Shown piece after piece: positions 1 through 9,274 of a DNA stretch of 64,000 nucleotides. The stretch is from an uncultured delta proteobacterium. Its GTDB lineage: Bacteria > Myxococcota > Myxococcia > SLRQ01. The notes beneath the pieces are model-generated. The model was not told the origin of the DNA and made no database searches. It was given only the letters and a program-made list of their open reading frames with translations. The translations under genes and the position numbers were made by a program. The DNA lies in contig CAVSGM010000002.1 of the NCBI GenBank assembly GCA_963727485.1, forward strand, positions 480,001-544,000. The letters are read 5' to 3'. Positions within the stretch are counted from its first letter, which is position 1; each line of letters begins with the position of its first letter.

Positions 1-1335
1 GGCCGCCCCGACGGCGCGCTCCTCCAGGTCACCCACACCCCCACCGGCGCCTTCGAGGCCAGGCCCTCCCCGGACGGCACGAAGCTCGCCTACACCGACT
101 ACTCGAGCCGGGGCTACGACGTGGCCCTGCTCCCGGTGGCCCCGACGACCTGGACCCCGGCGCCCGCCTGGCACGACGACCGGCCGCCCCCACAGCAGCC
201 CCGCTCCGCCGAGGTGTGGCCGGTGCGCCCCTACGACCCCTGGCACACCCTGCGCCCCTTCCACTGGGAGCCGCTGCTCACCGCCGACCCCGACGGCCTG
301 GCCCTCGGCGTGTCCACCTCCGGGAGCGACATCGTCGGCTACCACTACTGGAGCGCCGCGGCCTGGTACGGCCTCGCGTCCAAGCGACCGGGCTACTACC
401 TCTCGTACACCTACGCCGGCGCCTACCCCACCCTGTCCTTGAGCTCGGGGCTCGGCTACCAGACCGGCGGCACCGCCGTGGTCAACGGCGTCAGCTCCCG
501 GTACACGGAGGTCGCCTGGTCCGGCAGCGCCCAGGCGACCTTCTACCTGCCCCACCTCGACCGCAGCCAGGCGTTGAGCCTGGGCTTCACCGTGGACAAC
601 CGGAGCCCCGCCGGGACCCTGGCCACCCCCGCCCCTGGCGGCCCGGCGCCCGTCCTCCCCGAGCGGGGCACGGTCACCCGCCTCGACGTGGGCTGGAGCG
701 GCTCCACGGTCCACCAGTTCGCCGAGTCCCTCGGGCCCCAGGAGGGCCTGCGCGTCGGCCTCCACGCCCGGGTGGCGAGCCGGGCCCTCGGGGGGAGCTT
801 CGACTTCGTGGAGGTCTTCGCCTCGGCCCAGGCCTACACGCCCCTCCCCGGCCTCGAGGGCCACGTCCTCGCCCTCAACCTCGAGGCCGGCGCCGGCATC
901 GGCGACTTCGGCGGCCGGCGCTTCTTCGCCGTCGGGGGCCTGTCCATCGACGACCCGATCCTCTCCATCTACCAGGGCACCGGCTTCGGGGGCCCCACCA
1001 TCCGCGGCTTCGCCCCCTACGCCTTCACCGGCGACGGCTACGCGGTGGCGAACCTCGAGTGGCGCTTCCCGCTGGCCGACCCCCAGCGGGGCCTCGGGAC
1101 CCTGCCCATCTTCCTCCGGCGGGTCTACGGCGCGGCCTTCGCCGACGCCGGGACCGCCGGCGACCCGCCCTTCCAGCTCACGCCCGGGGGCGTCCACGTG
1201 GGCGTGGGCGCCGAGCTGCGGGCGGAGATCTATCTCTCGTATGCGTTGAGCTTCACCCTGCGCCTCGGGTGGGCCCACGGGCTGGGGCCCGGGGGCGTGA
1301 GCCAGCCCTACCTCGGGTTCGGGGGAATCTTCTGA
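1..1335 (+). CDS. BamA/TamA (Omp85)-family outer-membrane protein with TolB/PD40-type repeat upstream; 5' partial
   Basis: Frame is open from base 1 (..EARPSPDGTKLAYTDYSSRGYDV, PD40-like). Omp85 motif IRGF...GDGYAVANLEWRFPL, AFADAG, GVGAELR and C-terminal Phe. Confidence 0.8.
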   Translation, partial: GRPDGALLQVTHTPTGAFEARPSPDGTKLAYTDYSSRGYDVALLPVAPTTWTPAPAWHDDRPPPQQPRSAEVWPVRPYDPWHTLRPFHWEPLLTADPDGLALGVSTSGSDIVGYHYWSAAAWYGLASKRPGYYLSYTYAGAYPTLSLSSGLGYQTGGTAVVNGVSSRYTEVAWSGSAQATFYLPHLDRSQALSLGFTVDNRSPAGTLATPAPGGPAPVLPERGTVTRLDVGWSGSTVHQFAESLGPQEGLRVGLHARVASRALGGSFDFVEVFASAQAYTPLPGLEGHVLALNLEAGAGIGDFGGRRFFAVGGLSIDDPILSIYQGTGFGGPTIRGFAPYAFTGDGYAVANLEWRFPLADPQRGLGTLPIFLRRVYGAAFADAGTAGDPPFQLTPGGVHVGVGAELRAEIYLSYALSFTLRLGWAHGLGPGGVSQPYLGFGGIF

Positions 1336-1395: not shown

Positions 1396-1834
1396 CTACT
1401 CCGCAGGAGATTCAGACCTTTCTGGCACAGGCGGTGCCTGGACAATGAGCGGCCACTCGACGTCATCCACGTGCCAAGTTTCCTCGCCCGAGACACGCCA
1501 CTCCGCATGCAACAGATACTCACCAAACGCCTTGGGCAGCCGGAAACTAGTGGTGTTCAGGCGGAACCTCGGCTTGTCCACTGTTTCGAAGCCAAACGGT
1601 TCTCCTGCATCTACGGCTCCGTCTGGAGCCACCCGAACGAGCCTCATCTCGAACTTCCGCCCCTAGAGCCTCCGAGGCCAATCGCATGTAAAAGTGCATC
1701 TGAATTGGCAACGGGCGGCCGAGAAGCTCCTCGGGTACGGTAACTGTCTCGACGAGGTTGAACAGCGACGTGTTGTTCGACCGTTGGTCAAGGGCAGAAC
1801 CCGACGCCAGGGCCAGAAGATAGCCGTGAATCAT
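1396..1834 (-). CDS. DUF6941-like beta-rich protein, third gene of the TA islet (one extra G near 1660 splits the frame)
   Basis: SD GAGGTG, ATG at 1834. Removing one G from the GGGG run gives MIHGYLLALASGSALDQRSNNTSLFNLVETV...ALGRKFEMRLVRVAPDG...FGEYLLHAEW (145 aa). The pattern resembles DUF6941 proteins (by eye). Confidence 0.6.
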
Positions 1835-1841
1835 GGACACC

Positions 1842-2464
1842 TCAGGCGACCTTCTGCACAGTGCGGGTTGACGCATCAGCGCCGGACTGGTCAGGCAATT
1901 CTTCATCCTCTTGCCCGACGCCAGCCTGCCGAGCAGAACCCTCCTAGCCTCGAACCGAACACCCCCGCCATCACCACTCGTTGTGATCGTGAAGCCGTAC
2001 CAAGCTTCGGGGTGTACGCGTCCGAAGTGGTGGGACGCCGCTCCAAGGACAGCCTCGCATGAGGCTGTATCCGAGAAACCGGCGTCCGCTACTTCAAGAA
2101 GCCACGGGAACCGGCGCACTAGCCGAACGAGTGCCAATGCACCAGCCGAGATGTCCCCAAGCTTCCACCTCGCGGTAGTTCGGGGCGCTAGGCCCAGAGA
2201 ACGCTCGAAGTAAGCTAAGGTGACACCGAACGATGACAGCTGAGCAAGCATCTCTCTGGCTGAAGCCTTGTCAGCTGCGTCGATCTCCCTCTTGACGATG
2301 GCGTCGCCCTCGCAAGCGAAATCACCCTCTTCTCCGCAGACCTGACAGGTGTTGAAGGGAACGCGGTACTCAACCGGTTCCCCGAATGGCGGTGTGTAGC
2401 GACGGGTCTCCTCGCTACGGGATAGCTCATAGGACCCACATACGGGACACTGAAGCTTACTCAT
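1842..2464 (-). CDS. MqsA-like antitoxin (Zn ribbon + XRE-type HTH) with C-terminal extension; 3' end depends on an inferred frameshift
   Basis: CPVCG...CQVCGE zinc ribbon, then HTH-like LAYFERSLGLAPRTTARWKLG and ALALVRLVRRFPWLL. ATG overlaps the toxin stop (ATGAGTAA). An alternate frame gives ...EGSARQAGVGQEDEELPDQSGADASTRTVQKVA* with TGA at 1842-1844. Confidence 0.75.
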
Positions 2465-2879
2465 CGGGCCCTCCTTTTTTCTCGTCGCTTCCCCAGCCCG
2501 CCTCCTTCAACTTCTGAGCGAGCAGGAGCCCACGATCATCAGGCTTATCGTTAAGTTTCAAGGACTTGACGATCCAGTAGCCTGTTTTCTTCTGGTGGAG
2601 GAATGCGATGTAGCCGTACTTTTCGCCGGAGTAGAAGTTGTAGGAGTCAACCTTGATGTTCGCCTTCTTGTCAGGGTTGTTCCGCCAAAGTGCAGTCGCG
2701 GCGTGCGTCGGCTTCTCAAGGCCGCCAGCTCCAATCCAACTGGTAACAGCGTCCTGGGTGTGCAGTCCGAAGTCCGACTCAGCCGTGACCATCGCGCCAC
2801 GAGTCACCCGAACGCGCTTGCCGGTGCGACAAGCAGCCTCAAAGTCGGCAAGGTTGTAGGCGGGCCGCTCCGACGGCAC
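2457..2879 (-). CDS. MqsR-like (RelE-superfamily) mRNA interferase toxin
   Basis: 140 aa. N-terminal RPAYNLADF, VRVTRGA, DSYNF..YGYIAF..WIVKSLK resemble the MqsR layout. SD GAGGT before GTG; lies directly upstream of the MqsA-like gene. Confidence 0.7.
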   Translation of the reverse strand: MPSERPAYNLADFEAACRTGKRVRVTRGAMVTAESDFGLHTQDAVTSWIGAGGLEKPTHAATALWRNNPDKKANIKVDSYNFYSGEKYGYIAFLHQKKTGYWIVKSLKLNDKPDDRGLLLAQKLKEAGWGSDEKKGGPDE

Positions 2880-2928
2880 GGTTGACCTCGACAGTGCGAT
2901 GACACATGGCTGCGCTCCCGACTTGGGT

Positions 2929-2966
2929 TATACGGAACGTATATAGTCGGCCACGCCGGAATGCAA
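2929..2966 (-). promoter_or_regulatory. Putative sigma70 promoter of the TA operon overlapped by a palindromic operator
   Basis: Minus strand TTGCAT-N17-TATACG. Perfect palindrome TATACG-GAA-CGTATA at 2929-2943 covers the -10. Confidence 0.5.
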
Positions 2967-3100: not shown

Positions 3101-6001
3101 ATGGCGGCGGACGCGCGCGAAGGGCTCCTCTACGGGCTCCTGAAGGTCCGGCGGGGGGAGCTGGCCCGCACCGCGCTGCACTTCTTCTACCTGCTCAACG
3201 CCGTCGGCGCCTTCATCCTCGGGCGCAACGTCGCCGCGGCCCTCTTCCTCTCCGAATACCACGCCGATCGCCTGGCCTGGATGTACGTGGCCAGCGCCGG
3301 CGCGGTCTCCGCCGCCGCCTGGATCTACGGGCGGATCATGGGCCGCTTCCGCCTCGACCGGATCATCGCCGGGACCACCGCGGCGCTCGTGGTCGCCGTG
3401 GGCCTGGCGCGCCTCGCCATGGCCGAGCACCTCCCCTTCGTCTACCCGGCCTTCTACGTGCTGGTGGAGGTGATGGGGAGCCTGCTGGTGATCCAGTTCT
3501 GGTCGCTGGCCAACGCCATCCACAACACCCGCCAGGGCAAGCGCCTTTTCGGGGTCATCGGCGCCGGCGGGGTGCTGGCGAACGTGGTCGTCGGCTTCGG
3601 GGGCGCGGCGCTGGTGGGGGTCATCGGCACCGAGAACCTCCTCTACGTGATGATGGGCAACCTCGCGGTGTGCGTGGTCCTGGTGGGCGTCCTCGGCCGC
3701 CGGGCGCGCGGCGAGCTCGCCCGGGAGCGCCTCTCGCGGCCCGCGCCGAGGCGCCGGCGCATCTCGCTGGCCCAGGACGGCGCCCGGGTGCTCGGAAGCA
3801 AGCACCTGCGCATCATCGCCGCCATGGTGGTGCTCACCTTCGTGGTCACCACCCTGGTCGACTACCAGTTCAAGATCCTGGCGCGGCAGGCCTTCGACAA
3901 GACCCAGCTCACCGCCTTCTTCAGCCTCCTCTACGGGGTCACCGGCATCGGCTCGCTGGTCATCCAGCTCTTCGTCACCAGCCGGCTCCTGGAGCGCTTC
4001 GGGATCCTCTCCGGGCTCATCCTCCTGCCCCTCTCGCTCACCCTGGGGTCGGTGGGGATCCTGGTGTTCCCGGTGGCGCTGGCCGCCGCGGCCACCAAGG
4101 GCGCCGACGCGGTCTTCCGCTACACGGTCAACGACGCGACCACCCAGCTGCTCTACCTCCCGGTGCCCGCGCAGATCCGCTCCCGGGCCAAGGCCTTCAT
4201 CGACGGGATCCTCAAGCCCGCCGCCTACGGGACCACGGGGCTGGTGCTGGCGGGGCTGGTGGCCCTCTTCCCGGACCTCGACCGCCACGTGACCCTCCTG
4301 GCGATCCCCGCGGCCATCCTCGGCGTGGTGTGGATGGCCCTGGTCTTCGGCATCCGCGGCGCCTACGTGCGCTCGCTCCTCGACACCCTGCGCCGCCGGC
4401 GCCTGGGGATCCACGAGTCGCCGGTGCGCCTCGCCGACGAGGCCACGGTGGAGGCCCTGCGGCGCACCCTCGGCAGCGACGACCCCGACGCGGTGGCGAG
4501 CGCCCTGGAGATCCTGGAGCACCTCGAGGGGGGCGACCTCGACCCCATGGTCGTCCGGCTCCTGGGCCACGACACGCCCCGGATCCGGGTGCTGGCCCTC
4601 GAGCACCTCGCCCTGGGTGGGCGCCCGGGCCACGCCGGGCCGGTGAGCCGCTGCCTCGGTGACGAGGCGCCGGAGGTCCGGGCGGCGGCGGTGGCCTGCA
4701 CCTGCGCCCTGGGGCGGGAGAAGGCCATCCGGGCGGTACGGGGCTTCCTCGACGACCCCATCCCGGCGGTGCAGGCGGCCACCATGGAGGGGCTCATCAA
4801 GTACGGGGGCCTCGACGGGGTGCTGGCCGCCGCCGGGGCCCTCAAGGACCTCCTGGAGAGCCCGGAGCCCGAGCTGCGGATCCACGGCGCCCGGGTCCTC
4901 GGGGCCATCGGGGTGCGCAACTTCTACCACCCGATCCTCCGGCTCCTCGGTGACGGCGACCCCCAGGTGGTGCTGGCGGCCATCGAGTCCGCCGGGAGCA
5001 TGGGCAGCCCCGAGCTGGTGCCGCCGCTCATCTACAAGCTCGCCGACCCGCGCCTGGCCCCGGCGACGGTGCACGCCCTGGCGCGCTACGGCGAGGGCAT
5101 CGAGCGGACCCTGGCCAAGGTCCTGGACAACGCCGACGAGGACGCGCCGGTGCGCCGGGGGGTGCCGAGGGTCCTGGGGCGCCTGGCGACCCCGGGGGCC
5201 CTGGCGATCGCCCTGGCCCACCTCGCCGCCCCGGACGAGGGGGTGCGCACCGCCGTGTGCCGGGCCCTCTCGCGGATCCACCACACCCGCCCCGAGCTGC
5301 GCATCGACCGGGCGGCGGTGGCGGCGGCGGTGGAGAGCGAGGTCCGCGGGGGCTTCGAGGTCCTCCGGGCCCTCGAGGACCTGGGGCTCTCGTCCCGGCG
5401 CCCGGCGGGGAGCTTCGACACCGGGGCGCTCCTGGCGACGGCCCTGGAGGACCAGCTCGCCCGGGCGGTGGAGCGGGTCCTGCGCCTGGTGGCGGTCCTC
5501 CACCCGCCGGGCACCCTCGACGTGGTCCGCCACAGCCTCGAGGCCCGGGACGCCACCGTCCGCGCCAACGCCCTGGAGGTCTTGGACACCACCCTGGGCA
5601 CGCGCCTGGGGCGGCTGGTGATGCCGCTGTGCGACGAGCGGCCCCGGGCCGAGGCGTTGGCGGTGGCCCACGAGCGCTTCGGCCTCGCCCCCGCGGCCGC
5701 CGAGGACACCCTGCTCGCGCTCCTCTCCGACGCCGACGCCTGGGTCGCCGCCTGCGCCCTCTACCACCTGGCGCAGGTGGGCGACGACGCCGGCCCCCAG
5801 GCCCTGCCCCACCTCCGGTCCCGGTCCCCGGTGGTGCGGGAGACCGCGGCGCTGGTGGTCGCGGACCACCTCGACGCCGAGTCGGTGCGCCGGCACCTGG
5901 CGCCCCTGGCCGCCGACCCGAGCGAGGCGGTGCGCCGGCTGGTGGCAGCGAGGCTGGCGGCGCTCGGGCCCCGGGCCGTGGACGCCGACGGCGCGGCGTA
6001 G
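3101..6001 (+). CDS. Npt1/Npt2 (NTT/TLC)-family nucleotide transporter fused to HEAT repeats
   Basis: About 12 TM segments with QFWSLANAI..RQGKRLFGVIGAGG, TTLVDYQFK and LLYLPVP..RSRAKAFID, followed by HEAT-like repeats (D..P.VR..A). Confidence 0.85.
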   Translation: MAADAREGLLYGLLKVRRGELARTALHFFYLLNAVGAFILGRNVAAALFLSEYHADRLAWMYVASAGAVSAAAWIYGRIMGRFRLDRIIAGTTAALVVAVGLARLAMAEHLPFVYPAFYVLVEVMGSLLVIQFWSLANAIHNTRQGKRLFGVIGAGGVLANVVVGFGGAALVGVIGTENLLYVMMGNLAVCVVLVGVLGRRARGELARERLSRPAPRRRRISLAQDGARVLGSKHLRIIAAMVVLTFVVTTLVDYQFKILARQAFDKTQLTAFFSLLYGVTGIGSLVIQLFVTSRLLERFGILSGLILLPLSLTLGSVGILVFPVALAAAATKGADAVFRYTVNDATTQLLYLPVPAQIRSRAKAFIDGILKPAAYGTTGLVLAGLVALFPDLDRHVTLLAIPAAILGVVWMALVFGIRGAYVRSLLDTLRRRRLGIHESPVRLADEATVEALRRTLGSDDPDAVASALEILEHLEGGDLDPMVVRLLGHDTPRIRVLALEHLALGGRPGHAGPVSRCLGDEAPEVRAAAVACTCALGREKAIRAVRGFLDDPIPAVQAATMEGLIKYGGLDGVLAAAGALKDLLESPEPELRIHGARVLGAIGVRNFYHPILRLLGDGDPQVVLAAIESAGSMGSPELVPPLIYKLADPRLAPATVHALARYGEGIERTLAKVLDNADEDAPVRRGVPRVLGRLATPGALAIALAHLAAPDEGVRTAVCRALSRIHHTRPELRIDRAAVAAAVESEVRGGFEVLRALEDLGLSSRRPAGSFDTGALLATALEDQLARAVERVLRLVAVLHPPGTLDVVRHSLEARDATVRANALEVLDTTLGTRLGRLVMPLCDERPRAEALAVAHERFGLAPAAAEDTLLALLSDADAWVAACALYHLAQVGDDAGPQALPHLRSRSPVVRETAALVVADHLDAESVRRHLAPLAADPSEAVRRLVAARLAALGPRAVDADGAA

Positions 6002-6016
6002 GACACTCGGCCGGGC

Positions 6017-6454
6017 ATGCTCACCACCGTCGAGAAGGTCCTCTTCCTCAAGTCCATCGACCTCTTCCGCCGGATCCCCGGGGACGACCTGGCGCGCCTG
6101 TCGGCGATCACCTCCGAGGTCGCCTTCGAGAACGGCGAGCTGGTCTTCGAGGCCGGGGAACCCGGCGACGCCCTCTACCTGGTCATCGAGGGGCGGGTGC
6201 GGGTCCACCGGGGCGAGCGGCAGATCGCCGAGCTCGCCGAGCGGACCTGCTTCGGGGAGATGGCCATCCTCGACAGCGCCCCGCGCAGCGCCTCGGTGAC
6301 CTGCGCCTCGGAGGCGGTGTGCCTCAAGATCGAGCGCGAGGACTTCTACGAGATCCTCGGGGAGAAGCCGGAGATCGCCCAGGGCATCATCCGGGTGCTC
6401 TCGGCGCGGCTGCGCGACGCCCTCGACCGGGCCGACCAGGAGCCGGCGGCCTGA
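6017..6454 (+). CDS. Cyclic-nucleotide-binding domain protein (no HTH)
   Basis: MLTTVEKVLFLK..., GEPGDALYLV, FGEMAILDSAPRSASV phosphate-binding cassette. Confidence 0.9.
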   Translation: MLTTVEKVLFLKSIDLFRRIPGDDLARLSAITSEVAFENGELVFEAGEPGDALYLVIEGRVRVHRGERQIAELAERTCFGEMAILDSAPRSASVTCASEAVCLKIEREDFYEILGEKPEIAQGIIRVLSARLRDALDRADQEPAA

Positions 6455-6501: not shown

Positions 6502-7743
6502 ATGCGCCGCTCCCCCAGCGCCCGGGCCCTCGCCCCCCGGCCCGCAGGCCTCCTCGCGGCCGTCGTGGCCCTCGCCGCGGCCCTCGGGGCGGCCGGGTGC
6601 CCGGCGTCCGGGTGCCGCTACGACACCGACTGCCCCGGAGCCCAGGTGTGCACCGGCGGCACCTGCCAGGAGAGCCCGGCGGTCGCCGTCGCCGCCGGCG
6701 GGCGCTGCACCCCGGGCATCCCCTGCGCCGCCGGGGAGGTCTGCGTGTCCGGCGTGTGCCAGGCCCAGGGGAGCCAGGTCACCCAGCCCTGCACCTCGGA
6801 CCAGGACCCGAAGGCCTGCCCCTCGGGGCAGCTGTGCACCGTCTCCACCCAGGTCGCGACCTGCCAGCGGCCCCCCTGCGCGGCCCTCAACGCCTGCACC
6901 ACCCCGGCGGGCCGGGTCCCCGGGACCCACGCCTGCACCGCCGACGGGGACTGCGCCACCGGCTGGTGCCTCGACGGTGCCTGCGCCGCGGTCTGCGCCG
7001 CCGACACCGACTGCCCCGACGGCTTCGCCTGCACCGCCGAGACCGCCACGCCCCCCGGGGGCGTCGCCGCCACGGTCAGGGTGTGCACCCCCAAGAGCGG
7101 GACCCCGGTCCTCTGCGACGGGGGCCGCTTCTGCCCCGGCGGCGGCGCCTGCGCCTTCGACTGGGGGCCGCCGATCACCACCCACTGCGTGGCCACCTCG
7201 AGCCAGACCGTGCCCACCGGCGGGTCGTGCACCTACTACACGCCCTGCGCCGGGAACGTCTGCCTCTCGAACAACATCTGCGCCGCCCCCTGCCTCGACT
7301 CCCAGGACTGCCCGGTGGGGATGAGCTGCGGGACCATCAACTTCACCAACGGCAGCCAGGCCACCCCCGAGCCCGGGTGCATCGTCCCCATGAACGGCTG
7401 CCTCGACAACGCCATGTGCGCCAGCCGACCCGGGAAGACCTGCCGGCTCTCGGTGAGCATCGACAACCGGCACCTCCTCCTCGCCTGCGCCAGCACCGGC
7501 GGGGCCCCGCCCGGGGCGAGCTGCGCCACCGGGAGCGACTGCGCCTCGAACCTCTGTCTCCCAAGCGGGGTCTGCAGCCAGCCCTGCCTGAACGACGGCG
7601 ACTGCCGGTGCGCCGGCGGGGGGTCCTGCGACGGCACCTGCGCCACCAGCGCCTGCACCCTCACCGGCTGGACCTGCGGGGCGGTGGACCAGCCCGTCCC
7701 CGCCGGGGGCACCGAGAGCGTCCGGGCCTGCACCCCGCCCTGA
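6502..7743 (+). CDS. Cys-rich repeat secreted lipoprotein (myxobacterial C-x-x-D-x-D-C repeats)
   Basis: Signal peptide/lipobox (AAALGAAGC) followed by many CxxDxDC...C..G.C modules. Confidence 0.75.
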   Translation: MRRSPSARALAPRPAGLLAAVVALAAALGAAGCPASGCRYDTDCPGAQVCTGGTCQESPAVAVAAGGRCTPGIPCAAGEVCVSGVCQAQGSQVTQPCTSDQDPKACPSGQLCTVSTQVATCQRPPCAALNACTTPAGRVPGTHACTADGDCATGWCLDGACAAVCAADTDCPDGFACTAETATPPGGVAATVRVCTPKSGTPVLCDGGRFCPGGGACAFDWGPPITTHCVATSSQTVPTGGSCTYYTPCAGNVCLSNNICAAPCLDSQDCPVGMSCGTINFTNGSQATPEPGCIVPMNGCLDNAMCASRPGKTCRLSVSIDNRHLLLACASTGGAPPGASCATGSDCASNLCLPSGVCSQPCLNDGDCRCAGGGSCDGTCATSACTLTGWTCGAVDQPVPAGGTESVRACTPP

Positions 7744-7828
7744 TCCGGGGCCGCCGGGCCCCCGGGGCGGGCCACCTCCCGAGGTCGCCCGCTTGCGGCG
7801 CCGCTTGCCATCCGGGAGAATGGGGGCG

Positions 7829-9274
7829 ATGCGACGCATCCTGCCGCTCGTCCTCGCCGCGGGGCTCACCTTGGGGGCCGCCCTCTGGGCCGGCTGCTCG
7901 GTGCAGTGCCACTACGACACCGACTGCGCCGGGGCCCAGGTCTGCTCCAAGGGCAGCTGCGTGGCCCCCGACGTCCACCGGCAGGCCTTCGGCATCTGCG
8001 ACACCGCCGCCGACTGCGCCGCCACCGAGGTCTGCATCAGCGGGAGCTGCATCGCCAAGAACGCCCTTGGCGACGGGGGCGTGACCGACGGCGGCACCGC
8101 CGACGCCGGCGACTGCCCGGCCGGGCCCGTCTCCGCGTGCACCAACAGCGCCAACGCCAACTGCCCCTGCCTCGGCGGCAGCTACCGCTTCATCCCCGAC
8201 CCCAAGAACTGCGCCGGCTTCGACCCCTCGGCGATCACCGTGGTCCAGGACGGCTGCAACCTCACCACCTTCATCAACGGCGTGGGCCAGCTCACCGGGA
8301 CCGTGGATCAGTCCGGCACCGTCCACATGGCCGGCCTGTTCACCTGCAGCGGCGCCAAGGACCCGAACACCGAGGCCATCGCCCTCACCTGCCAGACCTG
8401 CAACAACACCCTCATCCCCTTCCTCGCCGAGGCCCCCTCCAGCGTGGTCCCGAGCGGCCCGTTCCTCATGGGCACCGGCGGGATCCCCGACGGCGGCACC
8501 GCCGACGGGGGCACCGCGGACGGGGGCACCGCGGACGGCGGCGCGAGCGACGGCGGCTACCCGGCGGACACCCAGCCCGAGCACCAGGTCGACCTCGGCT
8601 GCTTCCGGATGGACACCAACGAGGTGACCAACCGGTACTACTACGACTGCGTGAACCCGGGTCCGAACTACACCGGGACCCCCTGCGGCCTCCCGCCGGG
8701 CTTCACCAGCCCCGACGAGCTCCGCCAGGCCCCGGCCGACCACCTCCCGGTCATGGGCGTGAGCTGGAAGGACGCGCGGAACTACTGCAAGTACGTGGGG
8801 GGCGACCTGCCCACCGAGGCCGAGTGGGAGAAGGCGGCCCGGGGCGGGTGCGACCTCTACGGGGCCCCCACCTGCGAGCCCGGCGTCGACGACCCCGACT
8901 ACCCCTGGGGCAACGACGCGTCCAAGGTCTGCAGCGACCAGGACGACGTGTTCCAGGCCTGCGGGACCAGCGGCCCGGTCTCCGAGGACCAGTACGTGAC
9001 GGGGGCCTCGGGCTACGGCATCGTCCACCTCGCCGGCAACGTCCGGGAGTGGGTGCGCGACGCCTACAGCGCCACCTGGTACGCCCAGAGCCCCGCCACC
9101 GACCCCGTCGGACCGGCCCAGAACAGCACCCCGGAGCGGGTGATCCGCGGCGGGGCCTTCGACACCGACCCCTCGGCGGGGACCGTGTGGCGCCGGGACC
9201 ACGCGAGCGACAGCCTGCCCGGCGGCGCCTCGAGCATCGGCGACGTCGGCTTCCGCTGCGTCCGCGAGCACTGA
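7829..9274 (+). CDS. Cys-rich lipoprotein with C-terminal formylglycine-generating-enzyme (SUMF1/EgtB/PvdO) domain
   Basis: Lipobox LWAGC; GPFLMG, EVTN..Y, PVMGVSWKDARNYC, LPTEAEWEKAARG, GNVREWV, RVIRGG, GFRCVR. Confidence 0.85.
   Translation: MRRILPLVLAAGLTLGAALWAGCSVQCHYDTDCAGAQVCSKGSCVAPDVHRQAFGICDTAADCAATEVCISGSCIAKNALGDGGVTDGGTADAGDCPAGPVSACTNSANANCPCLGGSYRFIPDPKNCAGFDPSAITVVQDGCNLTTFINGVGQLTGTVDQSGTVHMAGLFTCSGAKDPNTEAIALTCQTCNNTLIPFLAEAPSSVVPSGPFLMGTGGIPDGGTADGGTADGGTADGGASDGGYPADTQPEHQVDLGCFRMDTNEVTNRYYYDCVNPGPNYTGTPCGLPPGFTSPDELRQAPADHLPVMGVSWKDARNYCKYVGGDLPTEAEWEKAARGGCDLYGAPTCEPGVDDPDYPWGNDASKVCSDQDDVFQACGTSGPVSEDQYVTGASGYGIVHLAGNVREWVRDAYSATWYAQSPATDPVGPAQNSTPERVIRGGAFDTDPSAGTVWRRDHASDSLPGGASSIGDVGFRCVREH
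8489..8556 (+). repeat. In-frame 15-bp tandem repeat encoding (DGGTA)n
   Basis: GACGG(C/G)GGCACCGC(C/G) repeated; protein PDGGTADGGTADGGTADGGASDGG. Confidence 0.7.

Follow-up and report, generated by a model that had tools for sequence, protein, structure and literature searches.

A TAC-like MqsRA Module with a DUF6941-like Protein at the Position of SecB

In the genome of an uncultured delta proteobacterium (Myxococcota, SLRQ01), an MqsR-like toxin gene and a tailed MqsA-like antitoxin gene are followed by a gene for an all-beta protein of the DUF6941 superfamily, at the place where toxin–antitoxin–chaperone (TAC) modules carry SecB. The three genes lie at the beginning of the 64,000-nt stretch of DNA that was analyzed (contig CAVSGM010000002.1, positions 480,001–544,000; hereafter the window), and they are a real, horizontally acquired, and mobile toxin–antitoxin module. 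The module is TAC-like but is not a TAC member, because its third protein is not SecB. Genes of the DUF6941 family occupy the SecB slot beside several unrelated toxin–antitoxin pairs, which suggests that the family is a second, undescribed antitoxin helper or phage sensor. The features of the locus are as follows, in window coordinates:

1–1335, plus strand: left flank, Omp85-family host gene outside the module (Pfam Omp85, E 7.6e-7)
1396–1834, minus strand: gene 3, 145-aa all-beta Ig-like sandwich, DUF6941 superfamily, with a frame change at 1665 in the assembly
1842–2092, minus strand: antitoxin C-terminal extension, a helix and then a hydrophobic beta-rich stretch, ChAD-like (from the alignment and the reading frames)
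2093–2464, minus strand: antitoxin core, CxxC/CxxC zinc finger (C6, C9, C40, C43) plus HTH, MqsA-like (TIGR03830 and family profile)
2457–2879, minus strand: toxin, MqsR fold (RelE superfamily), putative mRNA interferase, 140 aa, GTG start
2929–2966, minus strand: putative promoter/operator, TTGCAT (2966–2961), 17 nt, and TATACG, with the perfect palindrome TATACG-ttc-CGTATA (2943–2929)
3101–6001, plus strand: right flank, TLC/MFS transporter–HEAT repeat host gene outside the module (Pfam TLC and HEAT_2)

An earlier note on this DNA had described a coupled minus-strand trio on a lower-GC islet, and both observations hold. The antitoxin ATG at 2464 overlaps the toxin end by 8 nt, and gene 3 lies downstream. 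The GC content of the islet is 0.591 (0.731 for the genome), a level reached in 5 of 3531 genomic segments of 1570 nt, and the islet contains five CTAG sites versus about one per 3.5 kb in the genome. Among four same-family genomes compared, three have the right flank gene, and in two of these (G002 and G003) the islet is absent and the flank genes are direct neighbors. A database record of gene 3 from another assembly (P0002) found no match among 40 relatives searched, and no terminator, target-site duplication, or terminal repeat was found at the islet edges. The flanks of the window copy are housekeeping genes and defence neighbors are absent, which was counted against the TAC-like reading. 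In the region 3101–6454, the TLC/MFS transporter–HEAT repeat gene, which adjoins the Omp85 gene in relatives, is followed by a gene for a small cNMP-binding protein; the region 6597–9274 encodes Cys-rich repeat proteins and a formylglycine-generating-enzyme-like ORF (assigned by eye), as is typical of myxobacterial lipoproteins.

The regulatory signals proposed in the note were also considered. Before gene 3, a GAGGTG SD-like motif overlaps a TGA (1844–1842) that lies 7 nt before the ATG, in another frame than the antitoxin as written. A sigma-70 consensus scan gave zero sites and so did not confirm the promoter of the module; TTGCAT-17-TATACG is a near match. The palindrome at 2943–2929 may act as an operator; its core, TATAC-N5-GTATA, is also present upstream of L015, the locus with the closest toxin relative.

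In the assembled sequence, no stop separates the antitoxin frame from the first half of gene 3, so that a 305-aa ORF (2464–1547) results. Gene 3 changes frame near 1665, where an independent contig over 1646–1810 lacks one base, and record P0002 (145 aa, 99% identical) covers the whole of gene 3 with the same start. A contig over 1685–1939 shows no difference from the window, and no contig matched 1940–2467. Depending on the reading, which is set by a probable indel in 1940–1975, the antitoxin has 173, 186, or 207 aa: the two shorter forms would follow from indels in the G run at 1966–1962, and the stop TGA at 1844–1842, in the other frame, leads to a 207-aa protein ending in Val-Ala. It might also be that antitoxin and gene 3 are fused in this strain (~350 aa), or that this copy is decaying, in a family that is still a three-gene one. 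The open frame and the unchanged contig over 1685–1939 are in line with such a state, as are a near-identical record (P0004) with a frameshift at another place in the antitoxin and the GC3 in 1942–1844 (33 codons), which peaks in the fused frame (0.76 vs. 0.61 and 0.52) and does not settle the frame choice. However, P0002 is a separate protein in another assembly, none of the 150 gene-3 relatives listed (of 168) is longer than 186 aa, no fused antitoxin is present in the 21 GTDB loci described below, and the SD-like motif and the stop–start spacing match the family, so we consider fusion or decay very improbable. The idea that the indels arise at the GCTCAG/CTAG motif found no support, the frame shifts showing no directional excess.

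The first gene had been called an MqsR-like toxin, and the predicted structure agrees. Its AF2 model (pLDDT 83.8) aligns with E. coli MqsR (3hi2) over 91 of 91 residues (Z 10.2, rmsd 2.6), and the second-best match reaches only Z 5.2. The same structure was the top Foldseek match (E 0.012), and in the ESM Atlas the toxin lies near the MqsR cluster (0.79), which we take as a lead only. The toxin has no match in Pfam, NCBIfam, PHROGs, or PADLOC, and the Pfam MqsR_toxin model is unmatched by the window toxin and seven relatives. A word-index search with the toxin did not find its relatives, a PDB sequence search with the toxin profile did not find MqsR, and an IMG/VR scan with the toxin alignment gave zero matches. 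The toxin fold and the toxin-first order are shared with MqsRA of E. coli K-12, whereas the window toxin is 30–40 aa longer, has ~23% structural identity to E. coli MqsR, and falls below Pfam and NCBIfam cut-offs. Residues K56, Q68, Y81, and K96 are associated with MqsR toxicity (PMC2791442). The invariant Y90, K105, and K108 of the window family are on the matching C-terminal strands, as mapped by eye, the sequence alignment to MqsR covering only residues 3–33. By analogy, the toxin probably cleaves mRNA.

The second protein has the two CxxC motifs and XRE-type HTH on which its designation as MqsA-like had been based. It matches TIGR03830 (E 2e-6) at 27.5 bits, short of the 61.8 cut-off, and the antitoxin family profile aligns with residues 2–128 of the 131 of E. 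coli MqsA (E 3e-5). Zinc finger and HTH are common to the window antitoxin and E. coli K-12 MqsA, and the former adds a helix and a tail, as had been proposed: E. coli MqsA spans family positions 4–123, and the sequence past about residue 124 is extension. Antitoxin relatives continue 42–82 aa past the E. coli MqsA end, and the window antitoxin continues for at least 47 residues in any reading. The homologs, which have 171–224 aa, are all separate proteins with a variable tail, and in the alignment the extension consists of a helix followed by a variable hydrophobic stretch. Most antitoxins of the window family end without a degron-like dipeptide, which was counted against the TAC-like reading; the Val-Ala end of the 207-aa reading, itself a candidate only, resembles that of Mycobacterium tuberculosis HigA1 (bioRxiv 2024.02.24.581848).

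The description of the third protein as DUF6941-like and not SecB was upheld. Its AF2 model (pLDDT 97.3) has ten strands and zero helices of at least 4 residues, and is not an ordinary SecB fold. SecB is defined by a large helix (PMC3581621), which the protein lacks, and a SecB identity was rejected. The SecB family in Pfam (PF02556) matches none of 128 gene-3 family members, and profile similarity between gene 3 and the SecB-like protein of L011 (see below) is absent (E 0.36). SecB is not among the fold matches listed for gene 3, which alone does not exclude it. The model matches sandwiches of the Wzt-CBD, RhoGDI, and PDE6D/Unc119 types, at a generic Ig level with many ties (best Z 9.6).

At E ≤ 0.001, the 50%-identity representatives include 168 relatives of gene 3, and the 150 listed have 76–186 aa. 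PF22091 (DUF6941) is matched by 13 of the 128 aligned members at E ≤ 0.01 (best 1.2e-6) and other families by none; P0002 itself does not match PF22091 or reach the Pfam gathering score, and gene 3 was filed as DUF6941-like. The third protein at L105 bridges the two groups, with E 3.6e-11 to the window-clade profile and a PF22091 match over the cut-off. Compared profile against profile, the gene-3 clades resemble each other weakly (E 0.038); their link rests on PF22091 and L105, a point that was counted against the TAC-like reading. In the ESM Atlas, a gene-3 relative is located beside the DUF6941 cluster (0.94; family assigned on 35% of members), and the BFVD matches to gene 3 are uncharacterized phage proteins (best E 2e-8, TM 0.64). 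An IMG/VR scan with P0002 and plasmid tblastn searches with L020 gene 3 and with P0002 gave zero matches, and PADLOC is unmatched by any gene 3.

To investigate the conservation of the triplet, we scanned GTDB with the toxin alignment and obtained 21 loci, in 20 of which the toxin is followed by the antitoxin (at L029 the contig breaks off). The co-occurrence of such pairs with DUF6941, a check proposed in the note, was clear: a DUF6941-like gene follows the antitoxin in 18 of the 20 loci, at a distance of −22 to +42 nt. These loci belong to Myxococcota, Gammaproteobacteria, Nitrospirota, and Desulfobacterota. The gene-3 profile was built partly from 5 of the 18 loci, and the other 13 match it at E ≤ 3e-18. 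The Pfam DUF6941 model matches 6 of 6 and 6 of 11 of the relatives' third proteins, mostly below the cut-off, and the gene-3 copy of L017 is frameshifted. Two-gene versions are also present in GTDB (L015 and L032), which was counted against the TAC-like reading. A search within the phylum of the window (matches in 12 of 401 genomes, 7 of them strong and non-self) added L007 to these loci. In metagenomes (18 loci in total), gene 3 is present at nine of 12 informative loci, six of these nine repeating GTDB loci; of six new loci, three have gene 3 and three do not (L083, L091, and L092), again counted against. At L083 the hydrophobic tail is kept without gene 3. L091 has a long-tailed pair of the window family, and the place of DUF6941 is taken there by a 157-aa gene (1314–1787) that looks helical and is unrelated. 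Among the 95 flank ORFs of the 21 loci, PADLOC matches at E ≤ 1e-8 were found in 13 loci, and clear named defence neighbors in three, namely BREX (L034), Gabija (L020), and a type III methyltransferase (L030), both counts being without a background control. At L034 (1–6337), a BREX locus is interrupted between pglX and brxC by the triplet and a second small toxin–antitoxin-like pair.

DUF6941-like genes were also found beside other pairs. With the window-clade gene-3 profile, ten non-self genomes of 401 in the same phylum were detected: three have a second MqsRA clade with a tailed antitoxin (L038, L040, and L046), four an unnamed pair with a 115–135-aa middle gene (L039, L041, L043, and L045; L062, from a separate search, is a fifth example), and the others one CHAP-like pair (L042), one remnant, and one spurious match. 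Over the searches as a whole, L037 was taken as a remnant, L044 and L107 were set aside as spurious, L106 is frameshifted and has unclear neighbors, and L072, from the unpublished genome G199, was left out. The same second MqsRA clade occurs at L011 (854–2261), where the third gene is SecB-like as judged by motif (PD-T4-9_C, E 0.0099), and the L011 proteins are 41–43% (antitoxin) and 34–42% (toxin) identical to those of L038, L040, and L046. The antitoxin of L011 has an Ala-Ala end, and all L011 proteins are below family cut-offs.

All five middle genes of the unnamed pair end in Ala-Ala, a type of ClpXP degron known from CmdA and M. tuberculosis HigA1 (bioRxiv 2024.02.24.581848). CmdTAC/PD-T4-9 from the same source likewise combines an Ala-Ala antitoxin with a third gene; its toxin is an ADP-ribosyltransferase and its third gene is SecB-like, whereas the first gene of the L039 type has no family match. 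The unnamed pair consists of a ~200-aa protein unmatched in Pfam, NCBIfam, PHROGs, and PADLOC and a protein with an SsrA-like LAxAA ending, and judged by these sequences it is a candidate new toxin–antitoxin family. DUF6941-like genes also stand behind the pair of a CHAP-like and a 235-aa protein (L042:1492–3190) and behind a pair of 191 and 227 aa without family names (L056:217–1887).

PF22091 is rare, being found in 9 of 251 genomes sampled around G402 and in 5 of 300 Gammaproteobacteria. The former sample has seven matches over the cut-off, four in toxin–antitoxin-like triplets and three solitary. HicA–HicB–DUF6941 is present at L104 and L105, where HicB carries an RHH part, DUF6941–x–HEPN at L100, and DUF6941–HicB-like–HicA-like at L102 (the L102 labels by eye). 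At L100 (630–1853) and L102 (1447–2538) the order is reversed, with DUF6941 first, then an N-terminally extended middle gene, and then HEPN or HicA-like. Among the five gammaproteobacterial matches, two are in triplets of HigB-like, HTH with N-terminal extension, and DUF6941, and three are solitary. Solitary genes thus make up roughly half of the matches (3 of 7 and 3 of 5), which was counted against the TAC-like reading. In every linked case, in both gene orders, the DUF6941 gene adjoins the antitoxin gene and not the toxin gene. In the phylum of the window, PF22091 matches 65 of 301 genomes, most matches starting at model position 22 or later; the six of these inspected are longer proteins with a signal-peptide-like start, and this class was left out of the context counts. 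At L070 (G000:C2:886661–886930) and in many genomes of this phylum, PF22091 matches a widespread, apparently secreted protein of 170–230 aa without the first two model strands, a different subfamily.

The same arrangement is carried by phages. HigB–HigA–DUF6941 is located directly after cI in the temperate Pseudomonas phage MD8 (KX198612; L113:2161–3450), where gp52–gp51–gp50, a HigB-like, a HigA-like, and a DUF6941-like "putative Ig-domain" protein, form one coupled operon, with a toxin–antitoxin family different from that of the window. In the available text, the description of MD8 covers only the HigBA pair and gives the third gene no role (PMC8508860). Seven phage and eight plasmid records matched. 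The slot after cI presumably corresponds to the rexAB position of lambda. Phage phi2 has the same triplet downstream of cI; in phages MR13 and MR15, the annotation gives only small ORFs before the DUF6941 gene.

These modules resemble TAC modules (MqsRA-SecB/MqsRAC, HigBAC, HicAB-SecB, and M. tuberculosis HigB1-HigA1-Rv1957; PMC3581621, PMC5105189, bioRxiv 2024.02.24.581848) in gene order and in the variable antitoxin extension. The two groups also share the same three antitoxin families, a sparse horizontal spread, solitary third-gene relatives, and some degron-like ends: SecB partners include HigA, MqsA, and RHH-type HicB, and solitary SecB relatives exist (PMC3581621). On the other hand, the SecB of TAC modules has a long helix and the DUF6941 protein is an all-beta Ig-like sandwich, and, unlike TAC modules, some DUF6941 modules have an N-terminal antitoxin extension or the third gene first. 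The chaperone-addicted systems in the literature surveyed all use SecB-like proteins, which serve as swappable phage sensors as well, and a non-SecB beta-sandwich partner was not found in the available TAC literature searched, including PMC11980606, PMC13069673, PMC7159879, and PMC8508860. ParA-containing ternary toxin–antitoxin systems have a different third component (bioRxiv 10.64898/2026.10.19.760177). No naming of "DUF6941" or "PF22091" was found in the searched literature, where an unnamed listing in a defence-screen supplement is possible.

Taken together, the layout, folds, tails, and co-occurrence that the note had put forward for a TAC-like architecture with a non-SecB third protein hold, with DUF6941-like genes also beside other toxin–antitoxin families. 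We consider it probable that the module works like a TAC with an unrelated Ig-fold protein instead of SecB, and that DUF6941 binds the antitoxin tail. Several lines of evidence argue for this. The DUF6941 partner range (HicAB, HigBA, and MqsRA) is the range published for SecB, the triplet is conserved in most GTDB loci (18 of 20), and the second MqsRA clade swaps DUF6941 for a SecB-like gene at L011. The Ala-Ala ends of all five unnamed middle genes and the HigB–HigA–"Ig-domain" operon after cI in MD8 point the same way, as do the filling of the slot twice in the window lineage, considered below, and the weaker beta-prone tails of antitoxins without gene 3. Five such tails were compared with 21 others and are less beta-prone and less hydrophobic (P = 0.027 and 0.047, one-sided). 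The tests are uncorrected and on related sequences, and tail length shows no significant difference (P = 0.14), points that were counted against the reading.

In such a module, the antitoxin would bind the toxin via its zinc finger and repress the operon via its HTH, with autorepression at the palindrome. The hydrophobic, beta-prone tail might render the antitoxin unstable unless DUF6941 is bound, and DUF6941, translated right after the antitoxin, would bind this tail, probably as an extra strand along the edge of the sandwich. If stress clients or a phage protein then competed for DUF6941, the toxin would be released, leading to growth arrest or abortive infection.

The tail might instead be bound to the opposite effect, DUF6941 being a positive trigger (a sensor or protease adaptor) that brings about antitoxin removal when a phage or stress ligand enters its pocket. 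Its structural neighbors include ligand-binding sandwiches (RhoGDI, PDE6D, Unc119, and the Wzt carbohydrate-binding domain), and the survival of tailed two-gene versions is easier to understand if gene 3 is not needed against the toxin. However, the structural matches are of the generic Ig level noted above, and the interchange with a SecB-like gene within one MqsRA clade and the Ala-Ala ends fit protection better, so that a trigger appears unlikely. A co-transferred accessory that makes no contact with the tail, such as a second antitoxin or an independent defence factor, with the tails the product of drift, would agree with the frequent solitary copies of DUF6941 and the poor conservation of tail sequences. 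Yet published ChAD tails are highly variable too (PMC5105189), and at L012, where a plain MqsA has no third gene beside it, the protein stops directly behind the HTH. DUF6941 always adjoins the antitoxin gene in either gene order, and the unrelated toxin folds that it accompanies argue against direct toxin inhibition; we regard an accessory of this kind as quite unlikely.

The copy in the window seems to have a history of its own. Its toxin is sister to that of L015 (support 96), which is the closest relative (toxin 59% and antitoxin 49% identical) and has a short tail and no gene 3. In the DUF6941 tree, the window gene 3 falls outside the starred clade of 19 third genes from its own toxin family, and a tree holding it with the relatives' clade was rejected (p-AU 1e-10, 36 rows, in a test chosen after the first tree and with 17 long-branch or redundant rows dropped), indicating that the slot was filled twice. 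The simplest reading of these trees is a loss followed by re-recruitment of DUF6941 into the same slot. L117 and L118, two full-length members of the window gene-3 clade with known context, are solitary, which was counted against the TAC-like reading; considering the family pattern, it is unlikely that the window gene 3 is a chance neighbor.

More tentatively, with the odds somewhat short of even in our view, DUF6941 proteins could be small ATP-independent Ig-fold chaperones unrelated to SecB, whose solitary members serve in protein quality control and which at least four toxin–antitoxin families have repeatedly recruited as addiction chaperones and phage sensors; chaperone addiction would then have arisen twice by convergence, via N- or C-terminal tails. 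If the TAC-like reading is true, DUF6941 gains a function, a class is added to the candidate anti-phage systems that is not modeled by PADLOC 2.0, and the modules offer a test of how general the control of antitoxins through their tails is.
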